The notes under the pieces are model-generated. The model was not told the DNA's origin, ran no database searches, and saw only the letters and a program-made list of their open reading frames with translations. Source: Candidatus Tayloriibacteriota bacterium (GTDB lineage: Bacteria > Patescibacteriota > Minisyncoccia > Phycocordibacterales > PALSA-1337). From it: a stretch of DNA of 64,000 nt. Below, piece by piece: positions 19,628 through 39,614 of this stretch (its first letter is position 1; every line of letters begins with the position of its first letter). The position numbers and the translations under genes were made by a program. The stretch covers positions 173,285 to 237,284 of the forward strand of contig PLXZ01000004.1 in the NCBI GenBank assembly GCA_003151615.1, in the 5' to 3' direction.

Positions 19628-19628
19628 A

Positions 19629-20279: not shown

Positions 20280-20426
20280 AAAAGTATTGTTATTTATATA
20301 GCGGAAATATACCATGTACAAATAAAAAAACAATACGGTAAAATTAAGTCAATTTACCTTATTTTTCGCTTCTATCGCTCAAGAATAAATGGTATAATAC
20401 AGGGTAGAAAGTGAACTATCTGTCGA

Positions 20427-21249: not shown

Positions 21250-21316
21250 AATCGTTAATGAACGCTAATGAGTTTAATATTATTCGGATCTGATTTTTTA
21301 CACAACCGACAGGAAG

Positions 21317-22060
21317 TTAGTATATGTTTGAAGGAAAAACACCCGTATACTGATTACCAAAATCATCAACGCAAGTAACCTTAAAATCATATAATGAGCC
21401 AGCTATGTCCACACCTTCACCGTTGGGACTGGTTCCAAAAGTGATAGTATGTTTTTCTGTGGCGGTGTTCGCATAGGTAGTTTGGCTATAAGGCACATCT
21501 GCGCTACCACCAGCCCATGTCCATGTGCATGTTGAGGTGTTTCCGCTCGGTATTGATAGAGAAAAGCCATACTGGCCGTTATAAAATTCCGATACTTGTA
21601 CAGTCGTCGCATTAACTTTTGTATTAGGCTGAACGTCAGTAACAGGATTGTCCGTAGCTGTATTTGAATTCGTAATCGGTGACGGAGAATAATTTTCGGA
21701 GTTAACGATAGAAATTGTTAAAACTATAAGGGCAAATACTCCCCAGAAAATGTATACGGGTCTGAATCTATTTTTCTGTCGGACGACTGTAGCATAAGGT
21801 TTTGATGATTGATTGTCATCATCTGTATCGAAATCTTCTTGCTGTGTAGTGTTAAATGTCTGGTCATAGTGTGTTTTGCTTTTTTCATTAGAAAGTACGC
21901 GGTATGCTTCGTTGACCTCTTTGAATCTTTTTTCGTTACCATTATTTGTGTCAGGGTGATATTGGAGCGCGAGTATCCGATAGGCTCTTTTTATATCTTC
22001 AGTGGAAGCGTCACGAGGAATTCCTAGAATTTCGTAGTAGTCTTTTTTCATGGTTTTCAA
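21317..22060 (-). CDS. Membrane-anchored DnaJ (J-domain) protein
   Basis: DYYEILG...HPD motif...EAYRVLS; one TM helix. Confidence 0.85.
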
Positions 22061-23058
22061 TTACCGAACATATATGATAATTGGTACTGATCTGCGATTT
22101 CTCCTGCTGAATTGATTTGTCCCAGAATACACCCGTTTGTTAGTGAAACAGCCGTACTACCTTGCATACCGTTTGGTATTGCTATGTTGGTTGAATCATA
22201 ATATCCTGACGCACTTGTGATATTGCCAGTAAGCATTAGACTGGTTGAATTTGGTGGCCAGCCAACAACCACTACGGAATCACCGACTGAGCCGCGTGTT
22301 GAGCAATAGTTTTGTAGATTTGTCGTAAGGGCATGAGTTGCGAGGTAATTATTTGATGTATCAATCATGATTTGTGCAAAATCAATACCCGCATTACTGA
22401 CGAGATTTATTATTTGACTTTGACCGATGTCAGAACCGACGGTAAAGGTTGATAGGCCTCCTCCATAAAGTGAAGCTCCTGCTGGGAAAGAAACAGTACA
22501 CGAGCCAGGCAGTATTTGATAACCAGCATAAGACGTATTTGTTACTGCTCCTAGAACTGTATTTATAAAGTAATTTCCACCTGTATACTGGCCAAGAAGA
22601 CCATTTCCGCTTTCTGAAAAAAGAACGTTGCCATAACGGTTATAGTAATTGCAAGTAAAGAAAGCGAGTTCTGGGGAGAGTTTGGTAGCGAGTATATTCG
22701 CAGAATAATTATTTTGTGGCTGAACAGAATTTGTTGATGGTAGAATTGCGTTTGTTGTATTTTTAGGAGTATTAACTTGACCAGTTAAATCAGCGTTGAT
22801 TGCGGTGCGTGTTAAAGAGCCGACATATCCCGTTGGCGATATACTATTTGCAGACTGGAAATTTTCTACAGCCTGTTGCGTCAATGAGTAGAAATTTCCT
22901 GTTGCCGAGCCTTGAAGGTATCCGTTACTAATCAAAAACTGTTGAAGTTCAGTTACTTGTTCTCCAGTTGAACCATAGCTTAAATTAGAGTTGATTGAGG
23001 CATATGACACAAGAGGAGCGGCGAGAAATATGACTGTTCCTATTATTATTTTTTTCAT
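22057..23058 (-). CDS. Secreted protein: peptidoglycan-binding domain + degenerate trypsin-like domain
   Basis: [17 protein letters not shown]...AVENFQ...TGYVGSLTR; [11 protein letters not shown]...GMQGS. Confidence 0.7.
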
Positions 23059-23060
23059 AT

Positions 23061-23792
23061 TTATTGCGATATATTCATCGTATTAGTAACTGCACCCAAA
23101 GATTGAAGTTGTCCCTCAAGTGCGTTTCGATACGCTGTTATGGTGCTATGAAGCGTTGATGTTGAAGTCGTTGGTTGTAGGCCAGCGGTAGCTGTTACAT
23201 ACCACTCTCCGAGCGTATTAGGAAAAAGAGGCGTGCCGTCTAATCTCATGGAGCTATTGAGAACAGAAAGAAGTGTTGTGGTTCCGGTGAGGCCATTAAC
23301 TGCAGTATTGTTACCATTAAATTGCAGAGGCGCATTGTCTATATCGAAATCAATCTGTGTGAGGGCGGCTAATTCTTCGTTGATGCCCTGAATCTTTGCG
23401 TTATTTGTTGCGCTTGCCGTGGTAGCTGACTGTGTATTCGTGCTAGCGGAGCTTAATTGCCCTTGGCATAAGGCGTACTGCGTTTGCGCCTTTGCAAGCT
23501 GTTGCGTAAGGCTTGTTATGTCCGCTTCTTCCGTCGGATCCTTAACCGTCTGCGTCGTCGTTTTCGTTATGACTGTAGGAGTTTGCGATGTCGTGCTTGC
23601 AAGTTCGACCTGTAGCTGTGATATTTCAGTGTTCTGCTGATTGATTGTTTCGGTAAGGGCCACTGTTTCCGATGATGAAGCGGTTACTGAAACGGAGCTT
23701 TGACTAAACCATGTCGTTGGATTCCACCAAGCGGCGAAAGCGATTGACGGAATGAATGCTAGGCCTATGGGTGCGATAAAATATTTTTTCAT
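23061..23792 (-). CDS. Secreted coiled-coil hypothetical protein
   Basis: Signal peptide followed by AWWNPTTWF. Confidence 0.65.
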   Translation of the reverse strand: MKKYFIAPIGLAFIPSIAFAAWWNPTTWFSQSSVSVTASSSETVALTETINQQNTEISQLQVELASTTSQTPTVITKTTTQTVKDPTEEADITSLTQQLAKAQTQYALCQGQLSSASTNTQSATTASATNNAKIQGINEELAALTQIDFDIDNAPLQFNGNNTAVNGLTGTTTLLSVLNSSMRLDGTPLFPNTLGEWYVTATAGLQPTTSTSTLHSTITAYRNALEGQLQSLGAVTNTMNISQ

Positions 23793-23863: not shown

Positions 23864-24433
23864 CTACGTCGGCAAGGTCTTGTTTTTTGAAAGCCAATTT
23901 TCCATACGATTTTCAAATGTCATAAGCTCCCACTGGGCTAAACTCGCGTTCTCATTTTTCGCTTTCTTCTTGCAAATATCCATGGCCTTTATGTACTCTT
24001 TTTCTGTAAATTCACCTTTTGTCCATTTTGGGCCTTCCCAAGCAATTTTATTTAGAATAATTGAATCTATCACGCAGTGCAGAGGTTCATCTTTTTTGAA
24101 ATTAAACACCCATAGGTATTTAAGATAGAGATTGAGAAGTTTTTGTACTCTGCCGAAAGTGATTTTGTTGTTATTCAAAATGTCGATATATACCGATTTG
24201 TTTATTTTTTGTTGAAAGTCATTGAGGAGTTCAATATACTCTTCGTCCGTATTAGGAATTTTTTCTGAAAATTTTTCAAGCTGTTCCGATAAATAATCTC
24301 TAAATTTCATCCGCTTATTTGGGTCGGCGTTCAGTTTGTAAGTGGAGTAGCCTCTTATTAACGCCGCTTGGAAAACCAAAGAAGAGATTTCTTTTTTGGC
24401 GAATTCTATTTTTTTGAATTCTATTGATTGCAT
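23864..24433 (-). CDS. Hypothetical protein
   Basis: FGRVQKLLNLYLKYLW...HCVIDS; start immediately after the structured RNA. Confidence 0.6.
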   Translation of the reverse strand: MQSIEFKKIEFAKKEISSLVFQAALIRGYSTYKLNADPNKRMKFRDYLSEQLEKFSEKIPNTDEEYIELLNDFQQKINKSVYIDILNNNKITFGRVQKLLNLYLKYLWVFNFKKDEPLHCVIDSIILNKIAWEGPKWTKGEFTEKEYIKAMDICKKKAKNENASLAQWELMTFENRMENWLSKNKTLPT

Positions 24434-24434
24434 A

Positions 24435-24579
24435 CAAAAAGCCCACCACAGGTAGAGGCCTAAGCCTCTCATATCAGTTTCCCAATATGGCGAGTTAAGC
24501 GACCCTATGATGGGTTTTTTATGCTTAACTCGACTTTCTTCACCATGCCATTGGATTACTCAAATGGTTTAGGCTACTT
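24435..24579 (-). ncRNA. Unrecognised structured RNA, copy 1
   Basis: Homologous to 38432-38577 with compensatory changes in several stems; upstream promoter and terminal U-tract. Confidence 0.75.
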
Positions 24580-24752
24580 CTAACATATTCAGTTGTGGCC
24601 TAATCATACAATAAACGCCAATATCTGCAATGGTGATTAAATCAGAGCAAGCGCAGGACAAAGTTCTTTTTGTGAGGTAGTATATTTCTATGCGGACACA
24701 GGTTTACAGCTGTTAGAGCCGAGTTTTAAGCGAAAGAGCCACCTATAAAGAT

Positions 24753-25343
24753 ATGAAAAAGTTATCAAATAAACCCATTTCGGATCCGTCGCACGACACG
24801 GAGAAAAAAGATAACAAAATTGAAGCGGTGGTTTTAATTGCCTACGTACGTGAGACATATGGGGAACCAAGGCTTGCTCTTTATGTATTAAACTCAATTA
24901 TCGGTAAACGTATTAAGAAATTTACTAAAGAGAAGTGGGGTATAGCGAAATTTATCGCAGAAAGAACTTCCTATATTTCTGTCGAAGAAGATTATGATGT
25001 TGATGTTGAAAAAGGGGATTGGGGTCTTCCAGTAATGATGGGCGCGGCACGACCGATAAATGTTGATATTCTAGATAAAAATAATTTATCATTGCTTAGA
25101 CAGGAAGTTAAGACTTTTTTTGACAACATATCAAATTTTGTTTCAAGCACTAATAGACCAAGATGGGTTTGCCAAAAATGTGGCAGATTTTTAGGAAAAG
25201 AACTTTCGTCTGCTAGCGAAGTGAAAAAATTATTGAGGGATTTTAGTATGGGAAAATATCACAAGTGTCGTTCATGTCCAACAAATAATTACTTCACTTT
25301 CAATTCTGACGGTATCGTTTTCCACAGTAAACCGATTGACTAA
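24753..25343 (+). CDS. Hypothetical protein with C-terminal zinc ribbon
   Basis: CQKC...CRSC. Confidence 0.6.
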   Translation: MKKLSNKPISDPSHDTEKKDNKIEAVVLIAYVRETYGEPRLALYVLNSIIGKRIKKFTKEKWGIAKFIAERTSYISVEEDYDVDVEKGDWGLPVMMGAARPINVDILDKNNLSLLRQEVKTFFDNISNFVSSTNRPRWVCQKCGRFLGKELSSASEVKKLLRDFSMGKYHKCRSCPTNNYFTFNSDGIVFHSKPID

Positions 25344-25723
25344 TACGGTATTTCGTGTATAGTAGCACCAGCTCATTAACGTCTGAAATATCTGAAGGCA
25401 CGGGATGTGTCCGTAGGAAATTGTATCTGTTTTGCAGGTAACTCACAGAGGTGGGCTGTAGAAGCCAGAACAATGAATAGCAGTCTTGACGACTGGTGTT
25501 TATTGTTTTGGCTTTTTTCGTTCCAAAAAACGAATTATCAAAAATAAACTACGGACTTTTCTGAGCTTTAACAGCTTTAGAAAACTACAATTACAAAAGA
25601 AGAAAATAACAAGCCCACCCAAGATGCGGCTCGTCAGTTTGCATCTCTGATAGTGGCACTCATTCAGGAAATTAGCTTCAGCGAAAAAATAGAAAAATCG
25701 GACGTTAGAAATTAAAAAATCCC

Positions 25724-26203
25724 ATGAATCCAACAAACATTGAAAGTAAAATAGAACAGCCTCAAAAATCAAAAATTATAAGTTCTCCACAATTATCGAA
25801 TCAAATGCCAGCCATAAAAGAAAGCGACATCGGTTGGCTTGAACACATGGACATTGACGTCATGCACTTCAGCTTTCTCTCGGGCGTCGGAAGCCATTTC
25901 GGACTTAAAACCCTCGACGTCGCGATTATTTGTTGCATTTGGATTTTTTCCAAACGTAAAGGGTTCTGTTACTTGAGTAAGGAGAGAATGGCCGTCTTAG
26001 TCTGCACGAATCCAGTGAGCCTCTATCAGCATCTTGGAAGTCTTAAAAAAAAGCAATATATTGAGCAATCAGAAAAAACAATGGGCAGAGTCACTTTGTT
26101 ACGCCTATCTCCTGAAGTCCAAGATTACGTAAACCGCACAAAATCGGAAATCGACAAACGAAGAGAACGGAACAAAAAATCGAGCAAAAATAATGGGTAC
26201 TAA
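25724..26203 (+). CDS. Winged-HTH protein, replication-initiator N-terminal-like
   Basis: GFCYLSKERMA...SLYQHLGSLKKKQYI; direct repeats at its 3' end. Confidence 0.55.
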   Translation: MNPTNIESKIEQPQKSKIISSPQLSNQMPAIKESDIGWLEHMDIDVMHFSFLSGVGSHFGLKTLDVAIICCIWIFSKRKGFCYLSKERMAVLVCTNPVSLYQHLGSLKKKQYIEQSEKTMGRVTLLRLSPEVQDYVNRTKSEIDKRRERNKKSSKNNGY

Positions 26204-26433
26204 AGAATCCGTGGGAGTAATACTAAAGAATCTTTAGACCATAATGAATCCCATATTGAATTAAATAATAATTATTGTATCAACCCTCAAATGCGGATCC
26301 GAATGCGATAAAAATGCTCCCCTAAATGCATGAATTCAATCACGGATCCGTTCCGTCGGTGCGCATAAGTCTGGTTGATTTACCTCTCGACAGTTTATAA
26401 AATAAAAACATCAATATTATCTACTGTAAAGAG

Positions 26434-26622
26434 ATGTATCAAAAACCCATAGCCAAAATCAACGAGATAAAAGCCTTGCTCAAAGCAGGTCAAATCTCAT
26501 TCGATGAGGCCAAGGCGTTAGCGTCTCCGCTCATTAAGGAAATGGAAGCCTCTGCGGAAAAGGTTGCGAAGAAATTTCGCCGACCTGCTCCAAAGTTCAG
26601 CTTCACTGCTTTAATGAGATGA
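26434..26622 (+). CDS. Small hypothetical protein
   Basis: 62 aa, translationally coupled to the next gene. Confidence 0.55.
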   Translation: MYQKPIAKINEIKALLKAGQISFDEAKALASPLIKEMEASAEKVAKKFRRPAPKFSFTALMR

Positions 26623-26822
26623 AAAAATCTATCAAAAAGTACGAAGTCTCATTAACAGAAATTAAGCACGGACATGTCGTCGTCGAAGCTAAAAGCTACG
26701 ACGAGGCTACCCGAATAGCATTACAAAATTACCACCAAGGCGAAGTAACTATGGGCGATACGCCCGACATTGAAACGAAAGCGGTCAAAGAAATACCGCC
26801 CATAGGATTTTTGCCTCACTAA
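26619..26822 (+). CDS. DpnD/PcfM-like small protein
   Basis: KKYEVSLTE...VVVEAKSYDEA...Y..GE. Confidence 0.6.
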   Translation: MKKSIKKYEVSLTEIKHGHVVVEAKSYDEATRIALQNYHQGEVTMGDTPDIETKAVKEIPPIGFLPH

Positions 26823-26837
26823 AAAATATATAAAATT

Positions 26838-28457
26838 ATGAAAAAGAAGCAAGTAAATGAAAAACCATTAGAAGACATAAAATACGCCGCCAGTTATATC
26901 AGAGTGTCGACCCAAGACCAGCTCAACGGGCTTTCAATTGAGGTTCAAGAAAAACTGTGCCAACGAAGAGCCGAAGAAGCAGGGTACAAAGTATCTGAAG
27001 TCCTTGACGACGGAGGTATTAGCGGACACAACGACAATCGCCCAGGATTGCACCGCTTGAAAGAATTGATTACGACAAAAAAGATAACGGCTATAGTCGC
27101 TCTATCGTCCGAACGCCTTTTCCGCAACACCCGCTCGCATCTCGACTTTATGGAGTGCGTCTTTACTTACGGTGTTCATCTCCTTTACGTCAATGGGGCA
27201 ACACCTGAAAACAACGCAAGTTCAAGGATGCAGGACACAGTTCTTGCAAGTATGAATCAGTTTTATAGAGATCAAATATCTGACAAAGTGAAAGGTGTCC
27301 TCTATGAAAAGGCCAAAATGGGCTATTACCCCTCTCGACCTCCAGCAGGATATATGAATGTTCCAAACCCAGACAAGAATGCAGAACGCATGGCGCAAAA
27401 GCTCGTAGTGCCAGACCCAAACACAGCTCCATTCATCAAAGAAATGTTTACGCTCTACGCCACAGGAAATTTCAACGTCTACGACCTTTGCGACATTATG
27501 TACGAAAAGGGCTTGCGAAGCAGAAAGGATGGCAAAATATCGCCAAGTAGACTTCACGATATGCTGAGAAGCCGTTTTTACATCGGTGAGCTTGTATGGG
27601 GGCCAATCAGCAACATAGAGGGGAAACACGAGCCTATCATTGATGAAGCGGCCTTTAATCAAGTGCAAATGATTTTAACAGCACGCAATCACCACGCCTG
27701 TCGGCGGCGGAAATACCAATGGCTTTTAAACGGCTATCTCTACTGCTACAAGCACGACAACCGTTATACGGCCGAATGGCACACAATCGGAAATAGACGC
27801 ATTGCATATTACCATTGCGCCAACAAAAGCGGTTGCGGCAAGTATTCCGAACAAGTAGACCTAGAAGCTAAAGTTGCCGAAAAATTCAAGGACTTGGAGT
27901 TTAGTCCTGCGTTTATTAAAGAGGTGATCGCCGAAGCAAAGGCGACATTCAACGAACAGCGAAAGGGCTACGACAAAAAGAAACAAGGCCTCATCAATCA
28001 GCGTACCGCTTTCGACCGACGGCGCAAGGTTATGGAAGACAAACTTTTCGACGGCGTAATCGGCGATGACGACTTCAAAAAGAACCGAGCCGAAGTTATG
28101 GCTGAAATACAACGGATTGAGGTGAAGCTATCGGACTTGGAAAAAAGCAGGGAGGTCAGAGTTGATGAAGCGGAGCAGATACTTCGTTTTACGAAGAATA
28201 TTTACGACGCATATCAAAAGGCATCGCCAGATCTCAAGCGGCACTATTTAGGCTTCTTTTGGTCACGCTTTGAGGTAAGTGATAAGGTTATAATAACGTC
28301 TACTCCCTCGCTTCTTTTCGCTGAACTTTTGAAGCTAAAACACGCTATTTTTAGAAGGTCAGAAACGCAAAAACACAAAGGACTGAATAGATCTAACAAA
28401 GTTATATTAGGAGGTCTACGGCTCCGCATGTTGAACGAAGTCAGAACCTGCATTTAG
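26838..28457 (+). CDS. Large serine recombinase LSR1
   Basis: YIRVSTQDQ catalytic Ser; ERLFRN; recombinase domain (HEPIID); zinc ribbon + coiled coil; last 11 aa encoded at and beyond the core at 28421. Confidence 0.95.
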   Translation: MKKKQVNEKPLEDIKYAASYIRVSTQDQLNGLSIEVQEKLCQRRAEEAGYKVSEVLDDGGISGHNDNRPGLHRLKELITTKKITAIVALSSERLFRNTRSHLDFMECVFTYGVHLLYVNGATPENNASSRMQDTVLASMNQFYRDQISDKVKGVLYEKAKMGYYPSRPPAGYMNVPNPDKNAERMAQKLVVPDPNTAPFIKEMFTLYATGNFNVYDLCDIMYEKGLRSRKDGKISPSRLHDMLRSRFYIGELVWGPISNIEGKHEPIIDEAAFNQVQMILTARNHHACRRRKYQWLLNGYLYCYKHDNRYTAEWHTIGNRRIAYYHCANKSGCGKYSEQVDLEAKVAEKFKDLEFSPAFIKEVIAEAKATFNEQRKGYDKKKQGLINQRTAFDRRRKVMEDKLFDGVIGDDDFKKNRAEVMAEIQRIEVKLSDLEKSREVRVDEAEQILRFTKNIYDAYQKASPDLKRHYLGFFWSRFEVSDKVIITSTPSLLFAELLKLKHAIFRRSETQKHKGLNRSNKVILGGLRLRMLNEVRTCI

Positions 28458-28458
28458 A
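28421..28458 (+). repeat. att junction J9, right arm A (supplies the LSR1 C-terminus LRMLNEVRTCI*)
   Basis: gctcc-gcatgttgaacgaagtcagaacctgcatttaga. Confidence 0.85.
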
Positions 28459-28534
28459 CCTAAGATCAGCTTTCTAGGAGGCCTTTCCACAGATCCGAGT
28501 ACCGCATATTGGTTATCTCTGTTAAAATACTGGT

Positions 28535-29620
28535 ATGAGCAGTAATGCACTACTATCTTTATCAAAGACAAATAAAGTTTCGGAGCAAAATAAATTTGTG
28601 GCAGCTCAACCGATGCCAACAATTGATATTGAAAACAGGCGATATATCGGTAGCAAAGCAAAACTTTTAGATTGGATTTTTGATCACATAAAAAAAGAAT
28701 GCAAAGGAAATAGCTTCGCTGATATTTTTGCCGGTACAGGCGTTGTTTCCGCTAGGGCAGCGAGATCATTCAACAAGATTATCTTGAACGATATTTTGCA
28801 TTCGAACTTTGCTTCATATCAGGGATTTTTTGCGCAGGAAAAATATGATAGGGAAAAAATATTTAATTTTGTAGCACATTACAATTCTCTAGATGCTAAG
28901 GATATCAAGCATACATTTTTTTCAAAAGCATTTGGCGGAAAGTATTTCAATGTACCTGCGGCAAAACTTATAGGATACATTCGCGAAGACTTAAATAAGA
29001 GAAAATCAGAATTAAATAACAAAGAGTATCATATTTTGTTAACATCTTTGCTATATTCAGCTGACAAAATTGCGAATACCGTAGGACATTACGAGGCATA
29101 TTTTAAGAAAAGTATTTCAGATCGTAAATTTATTTTTAGACTAATCGAACCTTTGATCAAAGCGGGTAGAGTTTCTATTCACAGAGAGGACGCCAATGAA
29201 TTGGCAAAGAGCTTGAAAGCTGACATTGTTTACATTGATCCGCCTTATAATTCAAGACAGTATAGTCGCTTCTACCATGTCCTAGAAACACTCGCTCTTT
29301 GGGACAACCCCAAGCTTTTTGGTGTTGCACTTAAGAGGCCAGAGGAGAATATGAGCGAATATTGCAGAAACAATGCGGTCAATGCATTCGCTGATCTAAT
29401 TGGTAAACTAAATGCTAAGTATATTGTTGTTTCCTACAATAATACCTATAACTCAAAAAGCTCATCGTCGAGAAATAAGATCGAGCTTGAAGATATAAAG
29501 AGCATTTTGACCAGTAAGGGTAAGACAAAGATTTTCAAAAAAAGTCACCAATTCTTTAACGCAGGTAAGACAGACTTCAACGATCATCAGGAATGGCTTT
29601 TTATCACGGAAGTATTATGA
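28535..29620 (+). CDS. DNA adenine methyltransferase (D12 class)
   Basis: RYIGSK, DIFAGTGVV, DPPY; true start may be 28613. Confidence 0.9.
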   Translation: MSSNALLSLSKTNKVSEQNKFVAAQPMPTIDIENRRYIGSKAKLLDWIFDHIKKECKGNSFADIFAGTGVVSARAARSFNKIILNDILHSNFASYQGFFAQEKYDREKIFNFVAHYNSLDAKDIKHTFFSKAFGGKYFNVPAAKLIGYIREDLNKRKSELNNKEYHILLTSLLYSADKIANTVGHYEAYFKKSISDRKFIFRLIEPLIKAGRVSIHREDANELAKSLKADIVYIDPPYNSRQYSRFYHVLETLALWDNPKLFGVALKRPEENMSEYCRNNAVNAFADLIGKLNAKYIVVSYNNTYNSKSSSSRNKIELEDIKSILTSKGKTKIFKKSHQFFNAGKTDFNDHQEWLFITEVL

Positions 29621-30525
29621 AATCAGACACATCGATTAAAAGATCACCGTTTTTTTATGTCGGTGATAAGTTCAAACTAATAAAAGAGATAAAGCAATAT
29701 TTTCCAGAGAAAATAGATTCCTTTGCCGAACCTTTTTTGGGTGGAGGGAGTGTTTTTTTAAATGTGGATGCGAAAAAGCATTTTGTTAATGATATTGATA
29801 TTAATGTTATAAATCTTCACAAGTATTTAGCTAACTCCTCAAAAAAAGAAAAGGAGTTCTTCGGAAAAATTAAGAAAATCGTGCAAAGGTATAATCTCTC
29901 CCGATCATTTTTTGAGGACGTAGTCCCTCTTTCTTTGAGAAAAACATGGCTGAAGACATATTATGCCCACTTCAACAGAGACGGCTATAACAAAATGAAG
30001 AGTGAGTACAACAAGGTAAAAAAAGATACTCTAATTTTGTATCTGTTGCTCATATACGGTTTCAATAGGATGCTGAGGTTCAATAAGAAAGGCGAATTTA
30101 ATATTCCTGTTGGAAACGTTGATTTTAATCGGAATGTCGTGAATGCGCTTCATGATTATTTTGAAGCTATGAAAAGCAAAGATGTTGTTTTTTCTAGCAA
30201 GGATTTTAAGAAATTTATTTTAGACCTAAAGCTAAATAAAAATGACTTTGTGTATGTTGATCCACCATATTTAATCTCTGCAAGTGAGTACAACAAGCTT
30301 TGGAATGAAGATTTAGATCGAGAACTAATGAGTACTTTGGATATGTTGGATAAAAAAGACATAAGATTCGCTCTCTCCAATGTCACGGCATACAATGGTA
30401 AAAAGAACGAAAAATTGATATCTTGGATGAGTAAATACAAGGTTCATCCAATAAAGAGTAATTACATCAGCTATCACAACAATAAGAAAAAGCAAATAAA
30501 CGAAGTCCTGATCACAAATTATTAA
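29617..30525 (+). CDS. Dam-family DNA adenine methyltransferase
   Basis: YVGDK, EPFLGGGSV, DPPY. Confidence 0.9.
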   Translation: MKSDTSIKRSPFFYVGDKFKLIKEIKQYFPEKIDSFAEPFLGGGSVFLNVDAKKHFVNDIDINVINLHKYLANSSKKEKEFFGKIKKIVQRYNLSRSFFEDVVPLSLRKTWLKTYYAHFNRDGYNKMKSEYNKVKKDTLILYLLLIYGFNRMLRFNKKGEFNIPVGNVDFNRNVVNALHDYFEAMKSKDVVFSSKDFKKFILDLKLNKNDFVYVDPPYLISASEYNKLWNEDLDRELMSTLDMLDKKDIRFALSNVTAYNGKKNEKLISWMSKYKVHPIKSNYISYHNNKKKQINEVLITNY

Positions 30526-30526
30526 C

Positions 30527-32128
30527 ATGCCCACCTCACGAAACAACGAATATAAACCATTACTTTTTACGACGACTGTCAGAAATCCAAGTCGCCTAAA
30601 AGCGTTGTTGAGTGTACTTCACAAATTTAATAGCCAAGAGTTAACGAATGATCTCTCTGTGAAGATAATGGGTGAGTTAATTAGGTATGGATTATACAGA
30701 CCAACAAGAGCCGTGTCGTCAGAAATCGAAAAGAAGTGGGGATCAAAAAGAATAACAGATAACTCAACAATCGGTCTTCAGCTCCTTGCAGATGATGAGG
30801 TCGCCACGTTGCTCGACAAGAACCCACAAGCTCATAAAGAGGCAGGTTTTGATCGAGGTTGGCCATCACGATTTGCGACAGTGTTCGATTTAGCTAAGGA
30901 ACTTGGGTTTGTTTTTTATACAGTTGGTGAGAAGATTGAATTTTCCGAGATCGGGTCAAAGCTTGCAAACTCGATTGAAATAAAGATTCAAGAGGATAAT
31001 ATTTTAGTAGAAGATACTCACCCTGAATTTGAGCAGCAAGCTTTTCTGCATGCACTTGCCAAGTATCAAAGAAAAAATCCTTTCGTACGTGTTTTGAACG
31101 ATAATGCCCCGCTTATACTTTTGCTTGAGGTTATTCAGAAGATAAATGCTGACAACAATTTTAATGCATCTGGTATTTCTAAATTGGAGCTCCCGCTTTT
31201 TATTTACTGGAAGAATAATGATTCCGAAGCGCTTTATCAGAGAATAAAGAAGCTTCGTAATGATTTTGGCTATTCACCTACATGGGAAACGATATGTGAT
31301 ATTTGCAGAAACGAAATAATGCAGGGTGAGGACTCCACTAGGAAAGATAAATCAATCATGCTCGAGTATCCCGATGAATATATAAGGAAGATGCGTCTTA
31401 CCGGACTCATCTCTTTGAGAGGTGGTGGTAGATTCGTTGATATAAATAAAAATGAGCAAGAGAAGGTAGATTATATCCTCAAGGTATATTCAACTTATAA
31501 TAAATATCCCACCGAGCGAGAATATTTTAATTATGTCTCTACGATCGACGAGAACCTTGTCACTGTCGGCGCCAAGGCTGTAACGATTGAAGAGAAAGAT
31601 CGTTATCTTGAGAAATGGGTCAATGAATATTCATGGCCCAAAATTCGCGAGGAAATGACGAATCTTGCTGATAAGAAGCTTACCAAAGACGACGTTCTGA
31701 AATATCTTTCGAATCCAATAAGATTGGAGTTTCTTACTGCAATAGCAATAAAATCAAAGTTTCCGAATATTAAGGTCATCGCAAACTATCCCGTAGATGA
31801 CGAGGGTTTGCCTACATCGACAGCAGCCGGAGTCAACGATATGGGCGACATTGAGTGTTACGAAAATCATAATGGTGTTCTCGTTGAGGTGACAATGTCC
31901 GAGGGCCGATCGCAGACTATGATGGAAGTGTGGCCGATCACGCGTCATCTTGAGAAATTCAGCAAGAAGACAGAGGACGCCATGTGTTATTTTGTTGCCC
32001 CAAGCCTGTACACCGATTCAATAAGGCAAATAGACTATTCAAAACAACAGTACAATATTTCGATTGTACCAAAGACAATAAAAGATTTTTTGAATCACCT
32101 AGAAAGTACTCAAACACTCTATGTTTAA
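30527..32128 (+). CDS. AlwI-family type IIS restriction endonuclease
   Basis: FTTTVRNPSRLK N-terminus; GDIE...VEVTM PD-(D/E)xK-like end; two adjacent MTases as expected for an asymmetric site. Confidence 0.8.
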   Translation: MPTSRNNEYKPLLFTTTVRNPSRLKALLSVLHKFNSQELTNDLSVKIMGELIRYGLYRPTRAVSSEIEKKWGSKRITDNSTIGLQLLADDEVATLLDKNPQAHKEAGFDRGWPSRFATVFDLAKELGFVFYTVGEKIEFSEIGSKLANSIEIKIQEDNILVEDTHPEFEQQAFLHALAKYQRKNPFVRVLNDNAPLILLLEVIQKINADNNFNASGISKLELPLFIYWKNNDSEALYQRIKKLRNDFGYSPTWETICDICRNEIMQGEDSTRKDKSIMLEYPDEYIRKMRLTGLISLRGGGRFVDINKNEQEKVDYILKVYSTYNKYPTEREYFNYVSTIDENLVTVGAKAVTIEEKDRYLEKWVNEYSWPKIREEMTNLADKKLTKDDVLKYLSNPIRLEFLTAIAIKSKFPNIKVIANYPVDDEGLPTSTAAGVNDMGDIECYENHNGVLVEVTMSEGRSQTMMEVWPITRHLEKFSKKTEDAMCYFVAPSLYTDSIRQIDYSKQQYNISIVPKTIKDFLNHLESTQTLYV

Positions 32129-32207
32129 TCATAAACTCGGATGCTACTTAATTTTATTGACCACATAAACAGGAAGTTCTTGAGCTGGAAGGTATAATAA
32201 TAAAAAA

Positions 32208-32654
32208 ATGACAAAAGCCGCAGACATGCTCGCAAATATGATGAAAGACCAAAACATCCAACCGCTTACACCGGCAATCATTCCTGTAGTTAAGAGTGCG
32301 ATTATTCCGACACAACCGCCAAAGAAGAAAAGAGGACGCCCAACAGCAATTACCCCAGACGTTTGTCGGAAAATAGAGGAGGTAGCAGCACTCGGCGGAA
32401 CTATCGAAGAAATGGCTATATATGGGGATATTCACAGAGATACGCTCTATGCTTACCTCAAACAAAATCCGGAGTTTTCCGACAGAATAGGAGCATTGCG
32501 TCAGAGACCCATTCTCAAGGCTCGTATTACTGTAATAAACAGCTTAAGTGAGCCACATCATGCCCAGTGGTATCTTGAACGCAAGGCACGCAAGGAATTT
32601 TCGCTGAAAGGAGAGGAGGATCCCACGATAAGGGTATTACAAATAGATATTTAA
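32208..32654 (+). CDS. Terminase small subunit-like HTH protein
   Basis: GRPT...IHRDTLYAYLKQNPEF...AQWYLERK. Confidence 0.6.
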   Translation: MTKAADMLANMMKDQNIQPLTPAIIPVVKSAIIPTQPPKKKRGRPTAITPDVCRKIEEVAALGGTIEEMAIYGDIHRDTLYAYLKQNPEFSDRIGALRQRPILKARITVINSLSEPHHAQWYLERKARKEFSLKGEEDPTIRVLQIDI

Positions 32655-32697
32655 AAAAGAGCTGAACAAATGCAGGACTATATGATATCCTTAGCGC

Positions 32698-33108
32698 ATG
32701 ATAAAAACTGAAAGCGCCGGCGGTGTCGTAAAAAACAAGGAAGGAAAAATCCTAGTTGTCAGCCAAAGGGGGACTTCATGGTCTTTGCCCAAAGGTCATA
32801 TAGAGCCGGGAGAAAATGCTCGAGAGGCTTCAAAAAGAGAAATTGAGGAAGAATCGGGGTTAACGAATATCACTTTCATCAAAGAACTGGGTACCTACTC
32901 CAGATTTAAAATAGCGAAGGACGGGGGTGAAGATACTTCTGAAAAAAAGACGTTGCATATCTTTCTGTATGAGACGGATCAAGATAAACTCAAACCAATT
33001 GATCCTGATAACCCTGAAGCTCGCTGGGTTGAACCAAATAAGGTTGCCGATTTACTGACACATCCGAAAGACAAAGAGTTTTTTATAAAGATTTTACCGA
33101 CCATATGA
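32698..33108 (+). CDS. NUDIX hydrolase
   Basis: PKGHIEPGENAREASKREIEEESG Nudix box. Confidence 0.9.
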   Translation: MIKTESAGGVVKNKEGKILVVSQRGTSWSLPKGHIEPGENAREASKREIEEESGLTNITFIKELGTYSRFKIAKDGGEDTSEKKTLHIFLYETDQDKLKPIDPDNPEARWVEPNKVADLLTHPKDKEFFIKILPTI

Positions 33109-33413
33109 ACAAAAAAGTCATAGTCTATGTTCCACTCTCCCACGCTGACAAGGTTCGTGAAGCTATTGCTCAAGTTGGTGGTGGAAGACTTGGTAAATAT
33201 ACCCACTGTTCATTTTCAACGAAAGGAATAGGGCGATTTAGACCCGAAAAAGGTGCGAATCCCCACATCGGTAAAGTAGGGATAATAGAAAGCGTTGAGG
33301 AAGAAAGGATCGAGGTAACATGTGTCGCTAACATTATCAATGCCGTCATTGCAGCTATCAAAAAAGTTCATCCATATGAAGAGATTCCAATTGACGTATA
33401 TAATTTAGAATAA
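33105..33413 (+). CDS. YqfO/NIF3 PII-like domain protein
   Basis: YVP...GKYTHCSF...GRFRP...HPYEE. Confidence 0.85.
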   Translation: MNKKVIVYVPLSHADKVREAIAQVGGGRLGKYTHCSFSTKGIGRFRPEKGANPHIGKVGIIESVEEERIEVTCVANIINAVIAAIKKVHPYEEIPIDVYNLE

Positions 33414-33415
33414 TT

Positions 33416-33592
33416 ATGTCAGAAACCATTTTTATGACAAATGAAGAGTTGATAGAAAAATATAAAAGTCTACACCGAGAAAAAACAGGTATGGAATTGT
33501 CAGACGAGGAGGCTTTTTCTCAGGCCATGAATCTTGTTGCGTTAGTTAAAGATGTCTATAAACCCATTCCTTCCAATTTTATGAATCTATAA
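33416..33592 (+). CDS. 58-aa protein (not in the ORF track), similar in pattern to 41551-41718
   Basis: EELIEKYKSLHREKTGMELSDEEAFSQAMNLVALVKDVYKPI. Confidence 0.6.
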   Translation: MSETIFMTNEELIEKYKSLHREKTGMELSDEEAFSQAMNLVALVKDVYKPIPSNFMNL

Positions 33593-33628
33593 AAAATCTA
33601 ATCCTTTTTTTTGAAAAGTACGAAACAG

Positions 33629-33934
33629 CTAAGGTCTTTGAAACCACGCCACTATCCATCCGATTATGAAACCGATAAGTCCGTAGCAAGCTAAGGTAAT
33701 CCCATACACTGTGCCTGGTTTGTTAAAATCGAAACCTCCTTCGGGTGGCGAATTGTGCCCTGCCCAAGCTAGTCCTGCAATTATCATTATTACAGAAAAG
33801 AAAATAATCCATTTGCCAGTTTTTCGAACAGGGGAGCCGTGTACGGTTATGTGCTTCGTTCCTCCAATGCCAAACCAAGCAACGATAACTGCGACGATAA
33901 TACCCCCTGTGACCGTGATCAATAACTGAGTCAT
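33629..33934 (-). CDS. Small three-helix membrane protein
   Basis: Three hydrophobic segments. Confidence 0.6.
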   Translation of the reverse strand: MTQLLITVTGGIIVAVIVAWFGIGGTKHITVHGSPVRKTGKWIIFFSVIMIIAGLAWAGHNSPPEGGFDFNKPGTVYGITLACYGLIGFIIGWIVAWFQRP

Positions 33935-34077
33935 AATAAACTACTCTATTCCTTAATATCAGCAAAGTAAAGTAGGTTACCCGCGTGATAAGTGTTTTCT
34001 CAACTCATCAATAAAATAACGCATTTCCTGACCTCCAAAAGCGCTAAATGTCCATAAATGTTAAAATAGCTTTTCTC

Positions 34078-37000
34078 ATGAACGACGAAACGCCCAATGC
34101 AATACCACCAGATAAATTTAAGTTTGACGATCCCCGTCAGAATACAATTTTCGATTACCTGAAAAGACTGGTCGGTGAGGGTGCGGCATCTTTCTATAAA
34201 GATGCTTGCCGTCACATGGTGACAAAGCCTCCTTTTGAGACTACGACGCATATCATTAGCCATCTTTTGCGCGAAGTCGAAAGCGCCCTTCGAGCCGTAC
34301 TCGAAGGGATAACTGAGCCAGCCCCTACCGGAGAAGGTAGGCACAAAAAGCAGATACAAATAATCCTGAAAGCCCTTGATATTCCTGAAAATGAACTGGT
34401 TGGTAGGGCTTGGTTGGAGTTGCCGGGAGATAACGGTTTCCAAGACACGGCTCACAGAAATAATCTTGATGCCGCGCGTCCAATGGACAACGATTTCAAG
34501 ACCAGATGGGATAATTTCAATTTGATTCTGCTATCCGTCCTAGGAAAATTCGAGACTCAATATACGAAAGTTTTTGTGACACTCAATGAGCTTGCGAAAA
34601 AGACAATGCCCGTGCAAGCAGACGTCAATACTTTAAAATTGCACATCCCAAATAATCGAGCGGCTCACGAACATTTTTTCAAAAAGATAGATTCACCCCT
34701 GTGGTTACCATTACTTAATGACGCGGGATTTTTTGCATCACCGCCCGCGCCCGAAAAAGATATAGAGAATAACAGTGTCCGCTACCCAGCTTGGCCGGTG
34801 CTTATCTATCTCGGAAAAGTCGCCACGGCATCACCAGATTTGGTGACTCAGATTCTGTCAGGTATTCCAGAAACAGAAAATGGTACTGTGAAAGCTGGGT
34901 TGATCGAGATAACGACCCTTTTGCCAAAAGAAAAGAAACTGGAGCTGATTCTGTGTGTAAAAAAATGGATGAATGCTGACAATCAATTCTTCAGCTCAAT
35001 AAAATCCATCGAACTCATAAAATCATTAGCAACTGATAAGGAGATAGATTCAGCCTTTACGTTGTCACGTGAGCTCCTGGAGTTTATTCCTGATCCTACA
35101 GTTCCCAAACCGATCGAGGGAACTGACTGGATACCTTCACGTGAGCCAAGGACAATTATAGATAAATGGCAGTACGCAAGGTTTCTACAAGATGATTTTC
35201 CGGCCATTGCACAGCAAGATCCTTTAAAGGCTCTTGGGCTTCTTTGTGACATGCTTACACGGTTCTACGATCTGAGCCATACCGGAAAGGCGGAGGAACC
35301 TCTTGAGGATTACTCTTACATCAGCCGACCGTTGATTGAGACATCGGATCATCTCCATCGCGATGATATCGATGATTCTTTGATGGAAGCGATACTGAGC
35401 GTATCAATCAATGGGATCAAAGAGGACTCTGCTTTTCTGGAAAAAAGTATCTCCAAACTGAAAAAACAAAAGTGGCCTGTGTTCACTCGCATTATCCTGT
35501 ACCTCTTGAGCAAGCATCCGATCATAAATCCGGACCTCACGATTAACTATGTATTAACTACTGAGTTTTTGGATAATCAAAACTATGGCCATGAGTACCC
35601 CTTACTGCTGAATAATGGCTTCAATTTACTTAGTTCTGAGCAGAAGAAAGTGATATTTGACCTGATTGAAAAAGCAGAGCTGATAAAAGAGCGCATTGAA
35701 ACGCGACCGGACCCAGTATCTGCGGAAAACGCAGACAAGATAGTGAAGGGCTGGCAACGTGACAAACTATCAATCATCGCAACTCATCTTGAGGGTGATC
35801 GAAAGAAGGGTTATGAAACACTGGTCGCTGATATGGGCAAAGCAGAGGATGAAGAAGTTCGACACAAGCGTTCGGGAGTTTTCGTTGGACCTGTAAGTGA
35901 TGTGGATGCTGAACGGATAAGCAAGATGACTCTTAATGAATTTATTGGGCTTCTGAAAACATGGCAACCAAAGAAGGGTGATTTCGGTTTCGGTCCCAGC
36001 AAGGAAGGACTTGGACGGGAGATCAGTGCCGCAGTCAAAAAAGAACCTGCTCAATTTTCCACTTACGCTATATCTCTCGTCGGTTTTGATCCAACATACG
36101 TCCGTAATTATCTTCAGGCATTTTCTGAAATCACACAGAATAATATTCTGTTCGAATGGAAAGCGATAGTCGATCTGGGCGTGTGGATATCAGAGCAACC
36201 TCGTGAGATTCCAGGAAGAATAGTTGGCCACGTATTCGACGAGGATGTTGATTGGGGTTGGACGAGGAGAGCTCTGATAACTTTGATTTCAAATGGCCTG
36301 AACAATAACTCGATTCCGTATGAGCTACACGAAAAAGTGTGGAAAATTATTGAAATCCTTACCGACGATCCTAATCCGACGTCGGAGCAAGAGCTGACCA
36401 GAGAAGGAACACTGACAGAAGATGCCTATGGACTCACGATCAATACCGTCCGTGGTGAGGCAATGACCGCTGTCGTTGAGTACGGATTATGGATCACTCG
36501 GTTGATAGATAAGTTGCCTGAAAACAAGAAGCCGACTCTAAAAGGGTTTGCCCTCCTGCCAAAGATCCAGTCCATTCTCGAAAAGCATTTAACAAACGAT
36601 CCGTCCATAGCTGTCCGCGCCGTATATGGACGCTATTTCCCATGGATTCTATACCTAGGAAACGATTGGACTCTCGCACACGTCAAAGATATTTTCCCGC
36701 CTGGTGGATTTAATACCCCTCTGTATGACGCGGCATGGGAAACGTATGTCACCTATGTCTCCGTCTACAATGATGTATTCGAGGTCCTCCGCGATCAATA
36801 CATGGAAGCGGTAAAAAACATCGGGACAGCAACAAAAAAGAAAAGCCATATAGATAGGGACAATAGTCTTGTTGGGCACCTCATGACCATGTTCTGGAGG
36901 GGTAAATTGGCCATCGGGGACATTCTATTTACCACCTTCTGGAAAACAGCGGATGCTGATACGAGAGGTCATGCAATGGATTTCATCGGTCGCAGTCTAC

Positions 37001-37494
37001 ACAACATGACAGAGCCACTAGAACCTGAGGAAACTGGACTATTGAAATCTCTTTGGAAATATAGAATCGAGGAAGCGGAAGCGGCGCAAGACAGAACGTC
37101 TTATCAAAAAGAGATGGACGCTTTTGGATGGTGGTTCGAAAGTGGAAAGTTTGATGAAGATTGGGCGATCAAAGAGTTTCTGAGGAGTCTCGATATAGCT
37201 AAAGGTATGAGATCAGATTACTTCGTCATCGACCGCTTGGTCATTCTGGTTGAGAGCAGACCGCTGGAGGCTCTTCAGATTCTCGAAAAGTTAATCCAGT
37301 CCGACAGACCCCAGTGGTTTATATTCGGAAATGAAAGCGATATCAGAACGATATTCACTCGAGCTCTTCATTCTCCCGAGGCAACAGCACAGAAAATGGC
37401 AACGGACCTGATCAACAGACTCGTCGCCAAGGGTTATAGTTCTTATAGTGATTTACTGTTACCTCCTCCAATTAGCCAGATTGTTATGGACTAA
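34078..37494 (+). CDS. Large alpha-helical hypothetical protein (candidate defence protein)
   Basis: ~1140-aa ORF; N-terminal HLLREVESALR...AH segment, helical-repeat-like remainder. Confidence 0.65.
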   Translation: MNDETPNAIPPDKFKFDDPRQNTIFDYLKRLVGEGAASFYKDACRHMVTKPPFETTTHIISHLLREVESALRAVLEGITEPAPTGEGRHKKQIQIILKALDIPENELVGRAWLELPGDNGFQDTAHRNNLDAARPMDNDFKTRWDNFNLILLSVLGKFETQYTKVFVTLNELAKKTMPVQADVNTLKLHIPNNRAAHEHFFKKIDSPLWLPLLNDAGFFASPPAPEKDIENNSVRYPAWPVLIYLGKVATASPDLVTQILSGIPETENGTVKAGLIEITTLLPKEKKLELILCVKKWMNADNQFFSSIKSIELIKSLATDKEIDSAFTLSRELLEFIPDPTVPKPIEGTDWIPSREPRTIIDKWQYARFLQDDFPAIAQQDPLKALGLLCDMLTRFYDLSHTGKAEEPLEDYSYISRPLIETSDHLHRDDIDDSLMEAILSVSINGIKEDSAFLEKSISKLKKQKWPVFTRIILYLLSKHPIINPDLTINYVLTTEFLDNQNYGHEYPLLLNNGFNLLSSEQKKVIFDLIEKAELIKERIETRPDPVSAENADKIVKGWQRDKLSIIATHLEGDRKKGYETLVADMGKAEDEEVRHKRSGVFVGPVSDVDAERISKMTLNEFIGLLKTWQPKKGDFGFGPSKEGLGREISAAVKKEPAQFSTYAISLVGFDPTYVRNYLQAFSEITQNNILFEWKAIVDLGVWISEQPREIPGRIVGHVFDEDVDWGWTRRALITLISNGLNNNSIPYELHEKVWKIIEILTDDPNPTSEQELTREGTLTEDAYGLTINTVRGEAMTAVVEYGLWITRLIDKLPENKKPTLKGFALLPKIQSILEKHLTNDPSIAVRAVYGRYFPWILYLGNDWTLAHVKDIFPPGGFNTPLYDAAWETYVTYVSVYNDVFEVLRDQYMEAVKNIGTATKKKSHIDRDNSLVGHLMTMFWRGKLAIGDILFTTFWKTADADTRGHAMDFIGRSLHNMTEPLEPEETGLLKSLWKYRIEEAEAAQDRTSYQKEMDAFGWWFESGKFDEDWAIKEFLRSLDIAKGMRSDYFVIDRLVILVESRPLEALQILEKLIQSDRPQWFIFGNESDIRTIFTRALHSPEATAQKMATDLINRLVAKGYSSYSDLLLPPPISQIVMD

Positions 37495-38308
37495 TTCCTA
37501 CGGATATATCAGTGATCAGTTTATTCTTGAAGTTAGAGAAGCAGTTGAAAAAGTGCGATGCAGTAAGGAAATATAGAGTAAAGTAGGCTTTCGTCTGACT
37601 GGCGGGCATGTTATCAATAAAATCAAAATTGCTATAATTCAGCCGTAACCGCATTTGATAAAAAAAGTCGAAAATTGAAACCGTCAGCGACTGTTTAAAG
37701 CTTTCCACCCGTTGTCGATTTCTGATTGTCCTTACTTCTGTGATGCCATGGGACAATTTCCAACTAGCAATCTTCTCGTTGGCAACCTTCTTCATTATCA
37801 ATTTGTAAACTACATCGTCCTCGGTGTTTCCTCTCAAGTTTGCGCCGGAGGTACTCCGAAAATTAAGGATAGACTTATCGAATACTTGATTAAAGAGAGG
37901 TTGGCTAAATTGAAGCGATCCGCTTGATAGTAATCCAGTGAAATGTTTTACGCAGTCTACGTGTTTTGCTCTGAGCTGCGATGTCTTGCCTGTCATGAGA
38001 CAGTCAATGACGCATAGCAGGTGATAGGCAAGGTAATAGGATTTGATAGGCAACCACAAAACGGCTGCGGTCGAGTATTCTTCATCCATTTGTACGATAC
38101 CACACTCGTCGTCGATTGATTTTTTCGTCAGCTCAATTAAACGTACCTTGTCTCTGATTGCAGGAAGCTCTGTTGGTGTGAGTAGTGCATTTGATGTAGA
38201 TGAAATTGATACGCCACGTGCAAGTTTTGCGAGGAGGGATATATATTTCAGATGCGTAGAAAAGTCCGGTCTGTTTAAGGGGGAGAATGGAGATTGTGTG
38301 AATAGCAT
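37484..38308 (-). CDS. Hypothetical protein, HEPN-like
   Basis: IKSYYLAYH and late R..NY motifs. Confidence 0.5.
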   Translation of the reverse strand: MLFTQSPFSPLNRPDFSTHLKYISLLAKLARGVSISSTSNALLTPTELPAIRDKVRLIELTKKSIDDECGIVQMDEEYSTAAVLWLPIKSYYLAYHLLCVIDCLMTGKTSQLRAKHVDCVKHFTGLLSSGSLQFSQPLFNQVFDKSILNFRSTSGANLRGNTEDDVVYKLIMKKVANEKIASWKLSHGITEVRTIRNRQRVESFKQSLTVSIFDFFYQMRLRLNYSNFDFIDNMPASQTKAYFTLYFLTASHFFNCFSNFKNKLITDISVGISP

Positions 38309-38431
38309 ATACCCACTTTATTCCTCGTTAAGAAGAAAGTAAAGAAAGAAAGCGAGTAACAATACACTCTTTTGAGTGTATGTGGACTGATTTCAAATAG
38401 ATGGTATCATGTTGGTTACAATTGAATATTA

Positions 38432-38577
38432 AAGTAGCCTAAACCCTCGAGTAATCGGTGGCATGGTGAAAAGTCCCGTCGGAGCCAAAGAACCCATCAT
38501 ATGGGGTCGCTCTGACGGGCCGTATCGGGAAACTGATATGAGCAACTTCGGTTGCTACCCATGTGGTGGGCTTTTTG
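38432..38577 (+). ncRNA. Unrecognised structured RNA, copy 2
   Basis: See copy 1; GAAA and UUCG tetraloops; TGGACT...TGgTATCAT promoter upstream. Confidence 0.75.
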
Positions 38578-38615
38578 CTACCACTCATGGAATATTTACG
38601 CCCTAAAATATTCGC

Positions 38616-39614
38616 ATGAAAATCCTAATTACGTTCGCACTTGGAATCTTTAGCTTTTTCCATCAATCAATAACTCCTACCATTGCCATCTCAACAACCA
38701 CAGAGACGGCGACAACCTCTGTCTTTTCATCAGAAGCTACCACATCAGTGGCAGATTCTAATACTCAAAATGTAAACATATGCGAGAAAGAATATGGCAC
38801 GAATAGTTTAAACTCCGGTGGTGCTCCTGCCTGTGAATGCGCGCATGGATACGCCTGGAATAATGAATATACCAAATGCGTGACGCCAACGGTTGCTTGT
38901 TCAGAAATTAATGCCAATTGGGATGGTAAAATTACCAACAGTGAAGCTGAGTGCAATAGCTGCATGCCTGGATACGTTCCCAATAGTGCCGGGACAGCTT
39001 GCCAAATATCTAACGTATCAAATCCCCCAGAGACTACAACTAATTTAGAACAAGACTGTTTGAATAATGTCATGCAAAACGAGGCGCAAATGCTCCAAAA
39101 ATCTAACGCAGCACAAAAAACGTCAATACTATCAATAAATGACCAGCTCCAATTAAATAACGAGGCCATGTATGAGGAAAATCAGATTATGGCCATAGGA
39201 ATCAACGCATGCAAAGCTATGGCCGGGCAACCGACAACACCAATTCAATCTACTCCTGATCAACAGTACAGCGAGACAAACTCCTCTTACCAGCCAACCA
39301 TTCAAGACACAACAGGTCAAAATAACACTAACATTTATGGGGTGATCTACGCCCTCGACGGATCAACCGTTTCTGGAAATAGTGGAAATTATTCTCGAGT
39401 GGGCGACACGATTTATACCCCCGGGGGTGCAACTTACAGTGTTGTTGGTGACACCATATACGGACCGGGTGGGGTGACCTACAGTTTGGTCGGTAACACA
39501 CTTTATGGTCCCGGCGGTACGACCTACAACCTCACCGGCAATAAGATACAAAGTAGTGACGGTTCATCTGCCTCAAAGGTCGGCGACACCATCTACATCC
39601 AGCCGGGCAATTAA
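38616..39614 (+). CDS. Secreted Cys-rich protein with C-terminal 15-aa repeats
   Basis: Cys-rich EGF-like segment; (YSxVGDTIYGPGGxT)n. Confidence 0.7.
   Translation: MKILITFALGIFSFFHQSITPTIAISTTTETATTSVFSSEATTSVADSNTQNVNICEKEYGTNSLNSGGAPACECAHGYAWNNEYTKCVTPTVACSEINANWDGKITNSEAECNSCMPGYVPNSAGTACQISNVSNPPETTTNLEQDCLNNVMQNEAQMLQKSNAAQKTSILSINDQLQLNNEAMYEENQIMAIGINACKAMAGQPTTPIQSTPDQQYSETNSSYQPTIQDTTGQNNTNIYGVIYALDGSTVSGNSGNYSRVGDTIYTPGGATYSVVGDTIYGPGGVTYSLVGNTLYGPGGTTYNLTGNKIQSSDGSSASKVGDTIYIQPGN

Follow-up and report, generated by a model that had tools for sequence, protein, structure and literature searches.

What is the RNA that occurs twice, in the company of two large serine recombinase genes, in a 64,000-nucleotide genome stretch of an ultra-small bacterium, a Candidatus Tayloriibacteriota bacterium, and what could it do for the elements that carry it? 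The stretch (hereafter the window; assembly GCA_003151615.1, contig PLXZ01000004.1, positions 173,285 to 237,284 of the forward strand) was scanned as a whole against Rfam 15, and both copies matched the family LOOT (RF03000) over the full length of its model (positions 1-121, E ~1e-14). Copy 1, at 24575-24454(-), scored 82.4 bits and copy 2, at 38436-38556(+), scored 84.3 bits, the gathering cut-off of the family being 46.4 bits. The third and last match in the window was a group I intron at 45067-44793(-), so that no ribozyme family other than this intron was matched by the scan. An earlier note on this DNA had presented the RNA as unrecognised and had named beforehand a confident Rfam match as the outcome that would undo this; such a match to LOOT was found for both copies, and the claim of novelty therefore falls. 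The RNA is real, its family is already catalogued, and the window adds two new members to it. On what the RNA does, we lean, at a little better than an even guess, to reading LOOT as a two-state leader acting in cis, which would either stop expression of the cargo genes behind it or let it pass.

Rfam classes LOOT as an sRNA (entry type “Gene; sRNA”), whereas the window copies look like a leader. The family reportedly originates from an earlier survey. The passages in print describe a metagenomic family from the ZWD collection of the Breaker and Weinberg groups (PMC7779021), with about 43 pairs in six helices and 28 cross-covariations (PMC7657543), and list it among the families whose structure was refined by two covarying pairs (PMC11701678). 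Those passages give neither a host, a recombinase link nor a function, and they do not hold the tail switch described below. The name of the motif is absent from the main text of PMC5737381, whose supplement probably holds its description, and that original description may already contain part of the tail switch and the recombinase link. Our literature search found no paper on LOOT function, the original description in the survey supplement not being readable, and no functional paper on Patescibacteria recombinase islands with RNA.

The two segments aligned in the earlier note, 24579-24435(-) and 38432-38577(+), indeed align well, and both copies fold better than their shuffles (z of −3.8 and −4.3, with 0 and 1 of 200 shuffles as good). 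We aligned 54 model-found LOOT copies with their flanks, leaving out one partial match and some second copies. Among these homologues, 30 of the 31 core pairs show changes on both sides, and the core covariation score is 0.505, compared to 0.208 for shuffles and at most 0.127 for slid alignments, controls that correct only partly for kinship. This bears out the strong covariation that had been proposed. The long stem P3, the GAAA hairpin P4, and the last hairpin P5 exist as they had been drawn. P3 with its apical hairpin spans 24491-24532(-) in copy 1 (arms 24532-24523 and 24500-24491) and 38475-38519(+) in copy 2 (arms 38475-38485 and 38509-38519), while P4 and P5 lie at 24454-24489(-) and 38521-38556(+), respectively, the P5 loop of copy 2 being UUCG. 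The apical hairpin is weak in the alignment (51% of cells paired). P3 has a near-constant length (9-13 bp) and a freely variable sequence, and the four LOOT copies of this genome carry four different P3 arms. G-U pairs are numerous in the helices.

The most conserved part of the core is what resembles a tetraloop and its receptor. P1 and P2, at 24543-24573(-) in copy 1 and 38438-38466(+) in copy 2, enclose an internal loop that reads CCUAAA/CAUGG in 40 of the 54 copies, CCUAAC/UAUGG in 8, and UCUAAA/CAUGA in 3, thus being of receptor type in 51/54. The GAAA loop of P4 is closed by G-C or C-G in 52/54 copies. All seven invariant columns of the alignment fall in this receptor-like loop and in the tetraloop, which could dock onto each other in a tertiary contact. 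Two helices of the earlier drawing were rejected, having no covariation in the 54 homologues. Its closing stem AGCCUA/UGGGCU is paired in 71.0% of cells, compared to 71.1% after shuffling, with 321 of 500 shuffles as high, and its 5′ side belongs to P1. Its pseudoknot AUCAU/AUGGU is compensatory in one of five pairs (covariation 0.221 vs 0.206 in the control), and the true partner of the AUCAU loop is the 3′ tail.

The helices P1-P5 of the window copies are those of the Rfam model, whose 121 positions end at P5. Past this end, about 20 nt form a near reverse complement of the P3 loop. In copy 1 this tail lies at 24434-24452(-), with 19 nt complementary to the P3 loop (−23.3 kcal/mol), and in copy 2 at 38558-38577(+), with 20 nt (−28.0 kcal/mol); both contain a U5 tract. 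The resulting tail:loop helix is paired in 86% of 1,023 cells of the 54-copy alignment, 19 of its 20 pairs are compensatory, and its covariation is 0.480, compared to 0.210 for shuffled and at most 0.151 for slid alignments. It is present in 53 of the 54 model-found copies and in 125 of 134 non-redundant ones (147 copies, reduced to 137 under 85% identity, of which 3 were not parsed). Helix geometry, energies, and anti-tail counts were computed on 118 cleanly parsed copies. In these, the helix has about 19 bp and sits in a loop of about 22 nt; in 100/118 it reaches the P3 5′ arm or enters it. With no linker left, it cannot form inside a closed loop, and on this geometric ground the full tail:loop helix and a closed P3 would exclude each other. 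Thus, LOOT appears to have two exclusive folds, and a shorter stretch of the helix, beside the U tract, could arise earlier in the form of a pseudoknot. Two copies (L140 and L155) lack P5 and keep the tail:loop helix, so that P5 seems dispensable, and two others (L150 and L219) have an additional hairpin ahead of P3.

The signals at and after the tail vary among copies. A U5 run is found in 70/134, and the non-U letters of the U tract still pair with the P3 loop in 118 of 146 cases. The stem that precedes the U tract is conserved only as the long-range helix, the local hairpins having loops of 3-5 nt and three G-C pairs. A strand located 5-32 nt beyond the point where the U tract starts, which we call the anti-tail, folds back onto the tail; at p ≤ 0.05 it is found in 56/118 copies when compared to shuffles and in 28/118 when compared to other loci, where about 6 are expected in each case. 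The anti-tail of copy 2, at 38578-38590(+), pairs with the tail at −15.0 kcal/mol, so that the U tract forms the loop, and its strength is reached by 1 of 100 shuffles and by 10% of other loci. Furthermore, 15 of the 134 copies, none of them in the window, carry a start box, in which the sequence of the P3 5′ arm recurs immediately ahead of the start codon. Among the boxed copies scanned, Pfam places a methylase behind three. A U5 run accompanies 1 of the 15 boxed copies and 69 of the 119 box-less ones (Fisher 1.5e-4, a value to be read with kin not being independent), so that box and U5 run rarely occur together, as expected for two output modes. The Rfam model is without the tail:loop helix, the U tract, the anti-tail, and the start box.

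Upstream, the motif ACAAYT lies within 30 nt of 41 of the 54 copies and of 2 of 318 controls, and a −10-like hexamer precedes it in 38 of the 41, compared to 22% of controls. Copy 1 runs from this start motif to the tail end at 24434-24596(-), and copy 2 from the motif to the anti-tail end at 38418-38590(+). The earlier note had placed a sigma70-like promoter ahead of both. The −10-like hexamer and the ACAAYT motif do precede both, and a sigma70 consensus scan passes copy 2 only: its promoter, TGGACT-16-TATCAT at 38383-38410(+), agrees with the consensus at 9/12 positions and is weak alone (0.9 expected in shuffles), while the hexamer of copy 1, TATGAT at 24603-24608(-), has a −35 region under the scan threshold. 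The longer motif ACAAYTKAATA has six sites in the genome, namely the four LOOT copies, one tRNA, and one other; the count is not enriched (2-7 in base shuffles), and only its placement is telling. The two sites outside LOOT, at G000 C5:232104(+) and C2:60537(-), are one before tRNA-Val and one of another kind, which possibly marks another stable RNA. Downstream, a sense ATG opening a frame of at least 60 aa lies within 100 nt of 117 of the 134 copies, compared to 67 of 330 control windows. The first downstream genes are unrelated to each other, most having no Pfam family and the rest being methylases, nucleases, and membrane proteins. A hydrophobic N terminus is found in 82 of these 117 genes and, among those of at least 200 aa, in 25/40, compared to 28% of 639 genome open reading frames (ORFs).

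LOOT was detected in 20 of 61 relatives, in 28 of 151 class genomes, and in 33 of 151 genomes sampled across the phylum, counts that include this genome. None of the 14 control genomes gave a match. A motif-pattern search gave at least 163 loci (43 viral and at least 120 genome loci), of which at least 94 among those listed have a profile match, 11 of them viral; 8 of 9 spot-checked loci exceed the Rfam cut-off. The named records are mostly Parcubacteria, Saccharibacteria, and other Patescibacteria, and the host assignment is based on them. Strong matches also occur on two short contigs labelled Bathyarchaeota and Desulfosporosinus (L153:1478-1589 and L160:1476-1591), which are probably misbinned.

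The co-occurrence with serine-recombinase islands that the earlier note had suggested was recovered in two samples. Among the relatives, a large serine recombinase lies within 10 kb of 22 of 26 LOOT matches (at most 2.4 expected), a count that includes one recombinase taken from another search, and in the phylum sample within 10 kb in 29 of 44 cases (at most 2.2 expected). The recombinase is upstream and divergent in 15/22 and 20/29 of these, respectively. The converse is weaker, since LOOT is nearby for 30 of 74 recombinases in LOOT-positive genomes. The 923-kb genome studied here has four LOOT copies and seven large serine recombinase genes, three of them with no LOOT nearby; the idea of one copy in each element is true of both recombinases in the window and does not extend to the whole genome. 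RNA and recombinase are between 0.2 and 8 kb apart, and LOOT has an internal position in the elements instead of marking their ends. When 759 ORFs of at least 80 aa from 45 LOOT loci were clustered, only the recombinase was present at most loci (35/45); methylase/ParB, terminase-like, and zinc-finger clusters were each at 4-17 of the 45, and no dedicated protein partner of LOOT was found by this clustering. At five loci (L004, L079, L071, L076, and L085), a module of a ParB-methylase, a small helix protein, and a protein like a terminase large subunit recurs within about 10 kb of LOOT and may mark a phage-satellite-like subclass. At another (L059:10483-11565), LOOT is divergent from a tyrosine integrase, not from a serine recombinase.

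How could such an RNA act as a leader? What has been observed is a promoter-like start, five helices, a 3′ tail in covariation with the top of P3, a U-rich tract, and a sense gene shortly after. The two states are also close in computed energy: over the 118 copies, B exceeds A by a median of 2.8 kcal/mol at the pause, by 0.2 when the U tract has just been completed, and by 4.0 a further 35 nt on. During synthesis, P3 would be closed with its loop hidden in the small apical hairpin, and the GAAA loop of P4 would be docked into the receptor-like loop of P1/P2 (state A). With the polymerase at the U tract, the tail could invade the P3 loop, and the long-range stem so formed beside the U tract would act as a terminator; once fully zipped, the tail helix would prise P3 open (state B, off). 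If the polymerase escaped first, the downstream anti-tail, present in copy 2 and in about half of the copies, would capture the tail and keep state A (on). In the minority boxed subtype, not represented in the window, the freed P3 arm could instead cover the start codon. The choice between A and B is perhaps a kinetic race, tunable by a protein of the host or the element, rather than metabolite sensing; this is the weakest step, and we guess a race since neither a pocket for a ligand nor a pathway shared by the downstream genes can be seen.

Several points weigh against this reading of LOOT as a two-state leader. The transcripts, their 3′ ends, and the read-through are inferred, and the long-range stem would need to form within a pause. 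The energies of the two states were computed without pseudoknots and tertiary contacts. Of the 119 box-less copies, 50 have no U5 run, and termination is therefore not the output everywhere. The search for a trigger returned the recombinase as the sole family common to most loci. Copy 1 has neither an anti-tail nor a start box, and LOOT is absent from the one locus compared that holds a homologue of its cargo gene (L258, 81% identical), a locus with the same letters just before the ATG. The short distance of copy 1 to its ATG may thus be an accident of capture; the same locus indicates that cargo can be exchanged and is independent of the RNA. Finally, a free small RNA with some read-through would give much of the same layout.

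This last alternative, which we consider rather unlikely, sees in LOOT a free-standing stable small RNA with its own promoter, where the tail:loop helix would be a terminator and a 3′ protection and the cargo would depend on read-through or on promoters of its own. It agrees with the Rfam entry type, with the start motif shared between the four LOOT copies and a tRNA, with the unrelated downstream genes, and with the U5 run of 70/134 copies. However, the anti-tail and the start box are situated past the U tract, and both show covariation with variable portions of the molecule, so that they would matter only in a read-through transcript, and a sense gene follows within 100 nt in 117/134. The P3 arm raises a different thought, namely that LOOT could be an immunity RNA directed at its own element, much like phage P4 CI, in which the P3 arms of terminated copies in state B would pair in trans with nascent leaders of the same element and turn them off, P3 setting the specificity. 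The free sequence and near-constant length of P3, the four different arms of this genome, the exact match of the arm to the start region in boxed copies, and the strict link to mobile elements all suit it. Yet free variation is also typical of a plain structural stem, no P3-arm match was found near other start codons within 12 kb of the window copies, and the genome-wide matches are few and scattered; in the trans-target search (about 10 kb around 45 copies, and genome-wide for the four copies of this genome), the start box was the only target. We consider this very unlikely, and its broader form, a self-programmed immunity switch of widespread Patescibacteria integrative elements whose P3 arm silences the cargo with no repressor protein, is likewise a long shot.

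A small-molecule or ion riboswitch, with a docked core binding the ligand and the tail as expression platform, would explain the leader position, the tertiary motif, and the two mutually exclusive outputs, which are typical of that class. Still, the tetraloop/receptor-like pair accounts for the invariant bases, which leaves no spare conserved pocket, and the downstream genes share no pathway; for these reasons a metabolite riboswitch seems to us highly improbable, and a ribozyme is made unlikely by the same facts. A ribozyme, or a single-stranded DNA structure serving recombination or transfer of the element, is scarcely credible, even if the compact fold with its tetraloop/receptor-like pair and the close recombinase link could be taken that way: no ribozyme family other than the intron matched and little conserved sequence is left for an active site, while the GNRA and UUCG loops, the G-U pairs, the promoter, and the U tract indicate RNA from one strand, and the motif lies within elements at a varying distance from the recombinase. 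Taken together, what stands of the earlier interpretation is a functional structured RNA tied to serine-recombinase elements, with the attenuator as the best of the three options it had offered; its novelty and two of its helices do not.

In the window, copy 1 is followed by a co-oriented series of genes. Its tail stops 1 nt ahead of the ATG of the first cargo gene (23864-24433(-)), which encodes a 189-aa protein of no known family with 19 homologues, which match its start methionine; no Pfam family and no solved relative were found for it. Further co-oriented cargo, at 20725-23792(-), encodes coiled-coil-like, peptidoglycan-binding, DnaJ-domain, and unknown proteins. Large serine recombinase 1 (539 aa, 26838-28457(+)) is divergent from copy 1 and 2.3 kb apart, and the last 38 nt of its gene recur at 13165-13202 (95%). 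Three related runs yielded no more than short fragments; three contigs among them match the 3′ end of copy 1 over 40-57 nt, have foreign flanks, come from other organisms, and are not established as RNA. They weigh neither way on expression.

Copy 2 precedes a cargo gene at 38616-39614(+), whose 332-aa product has a signal-peptide-like N terminus and no family. Large serine recombinase 2 (592 aa, 42981-44759(+)) is on the same strand, 4.4 kb downstream, and the end of its gene overlaps the 3′ end of a tRNA-Asn(GUU) at 44747-45091(-), which is split inside the anticodon by a 272-nt group I intron. This split tRNA is likely the integration site of element 2. On the left side, no second copy of the tRNA-Asn end was found in the window, and that boundary is not fixed. 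Group I introns have reportedly been described in Patescibacteria tRNAs, a report that our literature search did not find. At G000 C3:85006-85281(-), ARAGORN calls a second tRNA that is likewise interrupted at position 35, by a 202-nt intron; its identity is uncertain because an intron-less tRNA with the same anticodon is called on C5.

The remainder of the window has features of its own. Directly after recombinase 1, at 28535-32128(+), two D12-class adenine methylases and an AlwI-family endonuclease form a type IIS restriction-modification set, and at 34048-37494(+) there is a 1,148-aa protein with no Pfam, PHROG, or NCBIfam family, which has close unnamed look-alike clusters of about 1,120 aa in the Atlas. 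Between 9136 and 19017, junction-like sequences (the recombinase 1 end and tRNA-end-like pieces) are repeated between small family-less minus-strand ORFs and look like scars of serial insertion. At 19043-20333(-), a DUF5343 ORF and a Swt1-like HEPN ORF overlap, being possibly a defence pair or a single frameshifted gene.

With these data, an orphan RNA gains a testable role: it accompanies serine-recombinase islands, and its conserved competing helices are missing from the database model. If the leader model is true, LOOT would serve as a general switch to turn accessory genes on or off, such as those for surface proteins and DNA methylases, in bacteria with few known regulators. Among known systems, phage P4 CI pairs with seqA and seqC of its own leader, leading to termination, and in the passages that describe it and Gifsy-1 IsrK (PMC4825925) these are likewise structured leader RNAs of a mobile element, complementary to boxes of their own transcript. 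LOOT has no sequence or Rfam similarity to them, and no trans target was found for the window copies. For the putative tertiary contact, the GAAA tetraloop and 11-nt receptor have the consensus CCUAaG/U_AaGG (PMC2615604). The 5′ internal loop of LOOT fits it in 51/54 copies and the GAAA loop in 52/54, while LOOT has A-C or C-U where the consensus has G-U, and the contact is proposed on the basis of this sequence likeness. Transcription attenuators and riboswitch expression platforms switch by strand displacement. LOOT likewise has competing helices at a U tract, near-equal energies, and a second mode of output that involves the start codon; this analysis identified neither a ligand nor a leader peptide nor a protein partner for it. 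Differently from attenuators, its terminator stem would enclose two hairpins and form at long range, which would make it an unusual terminator if the leader model is true.

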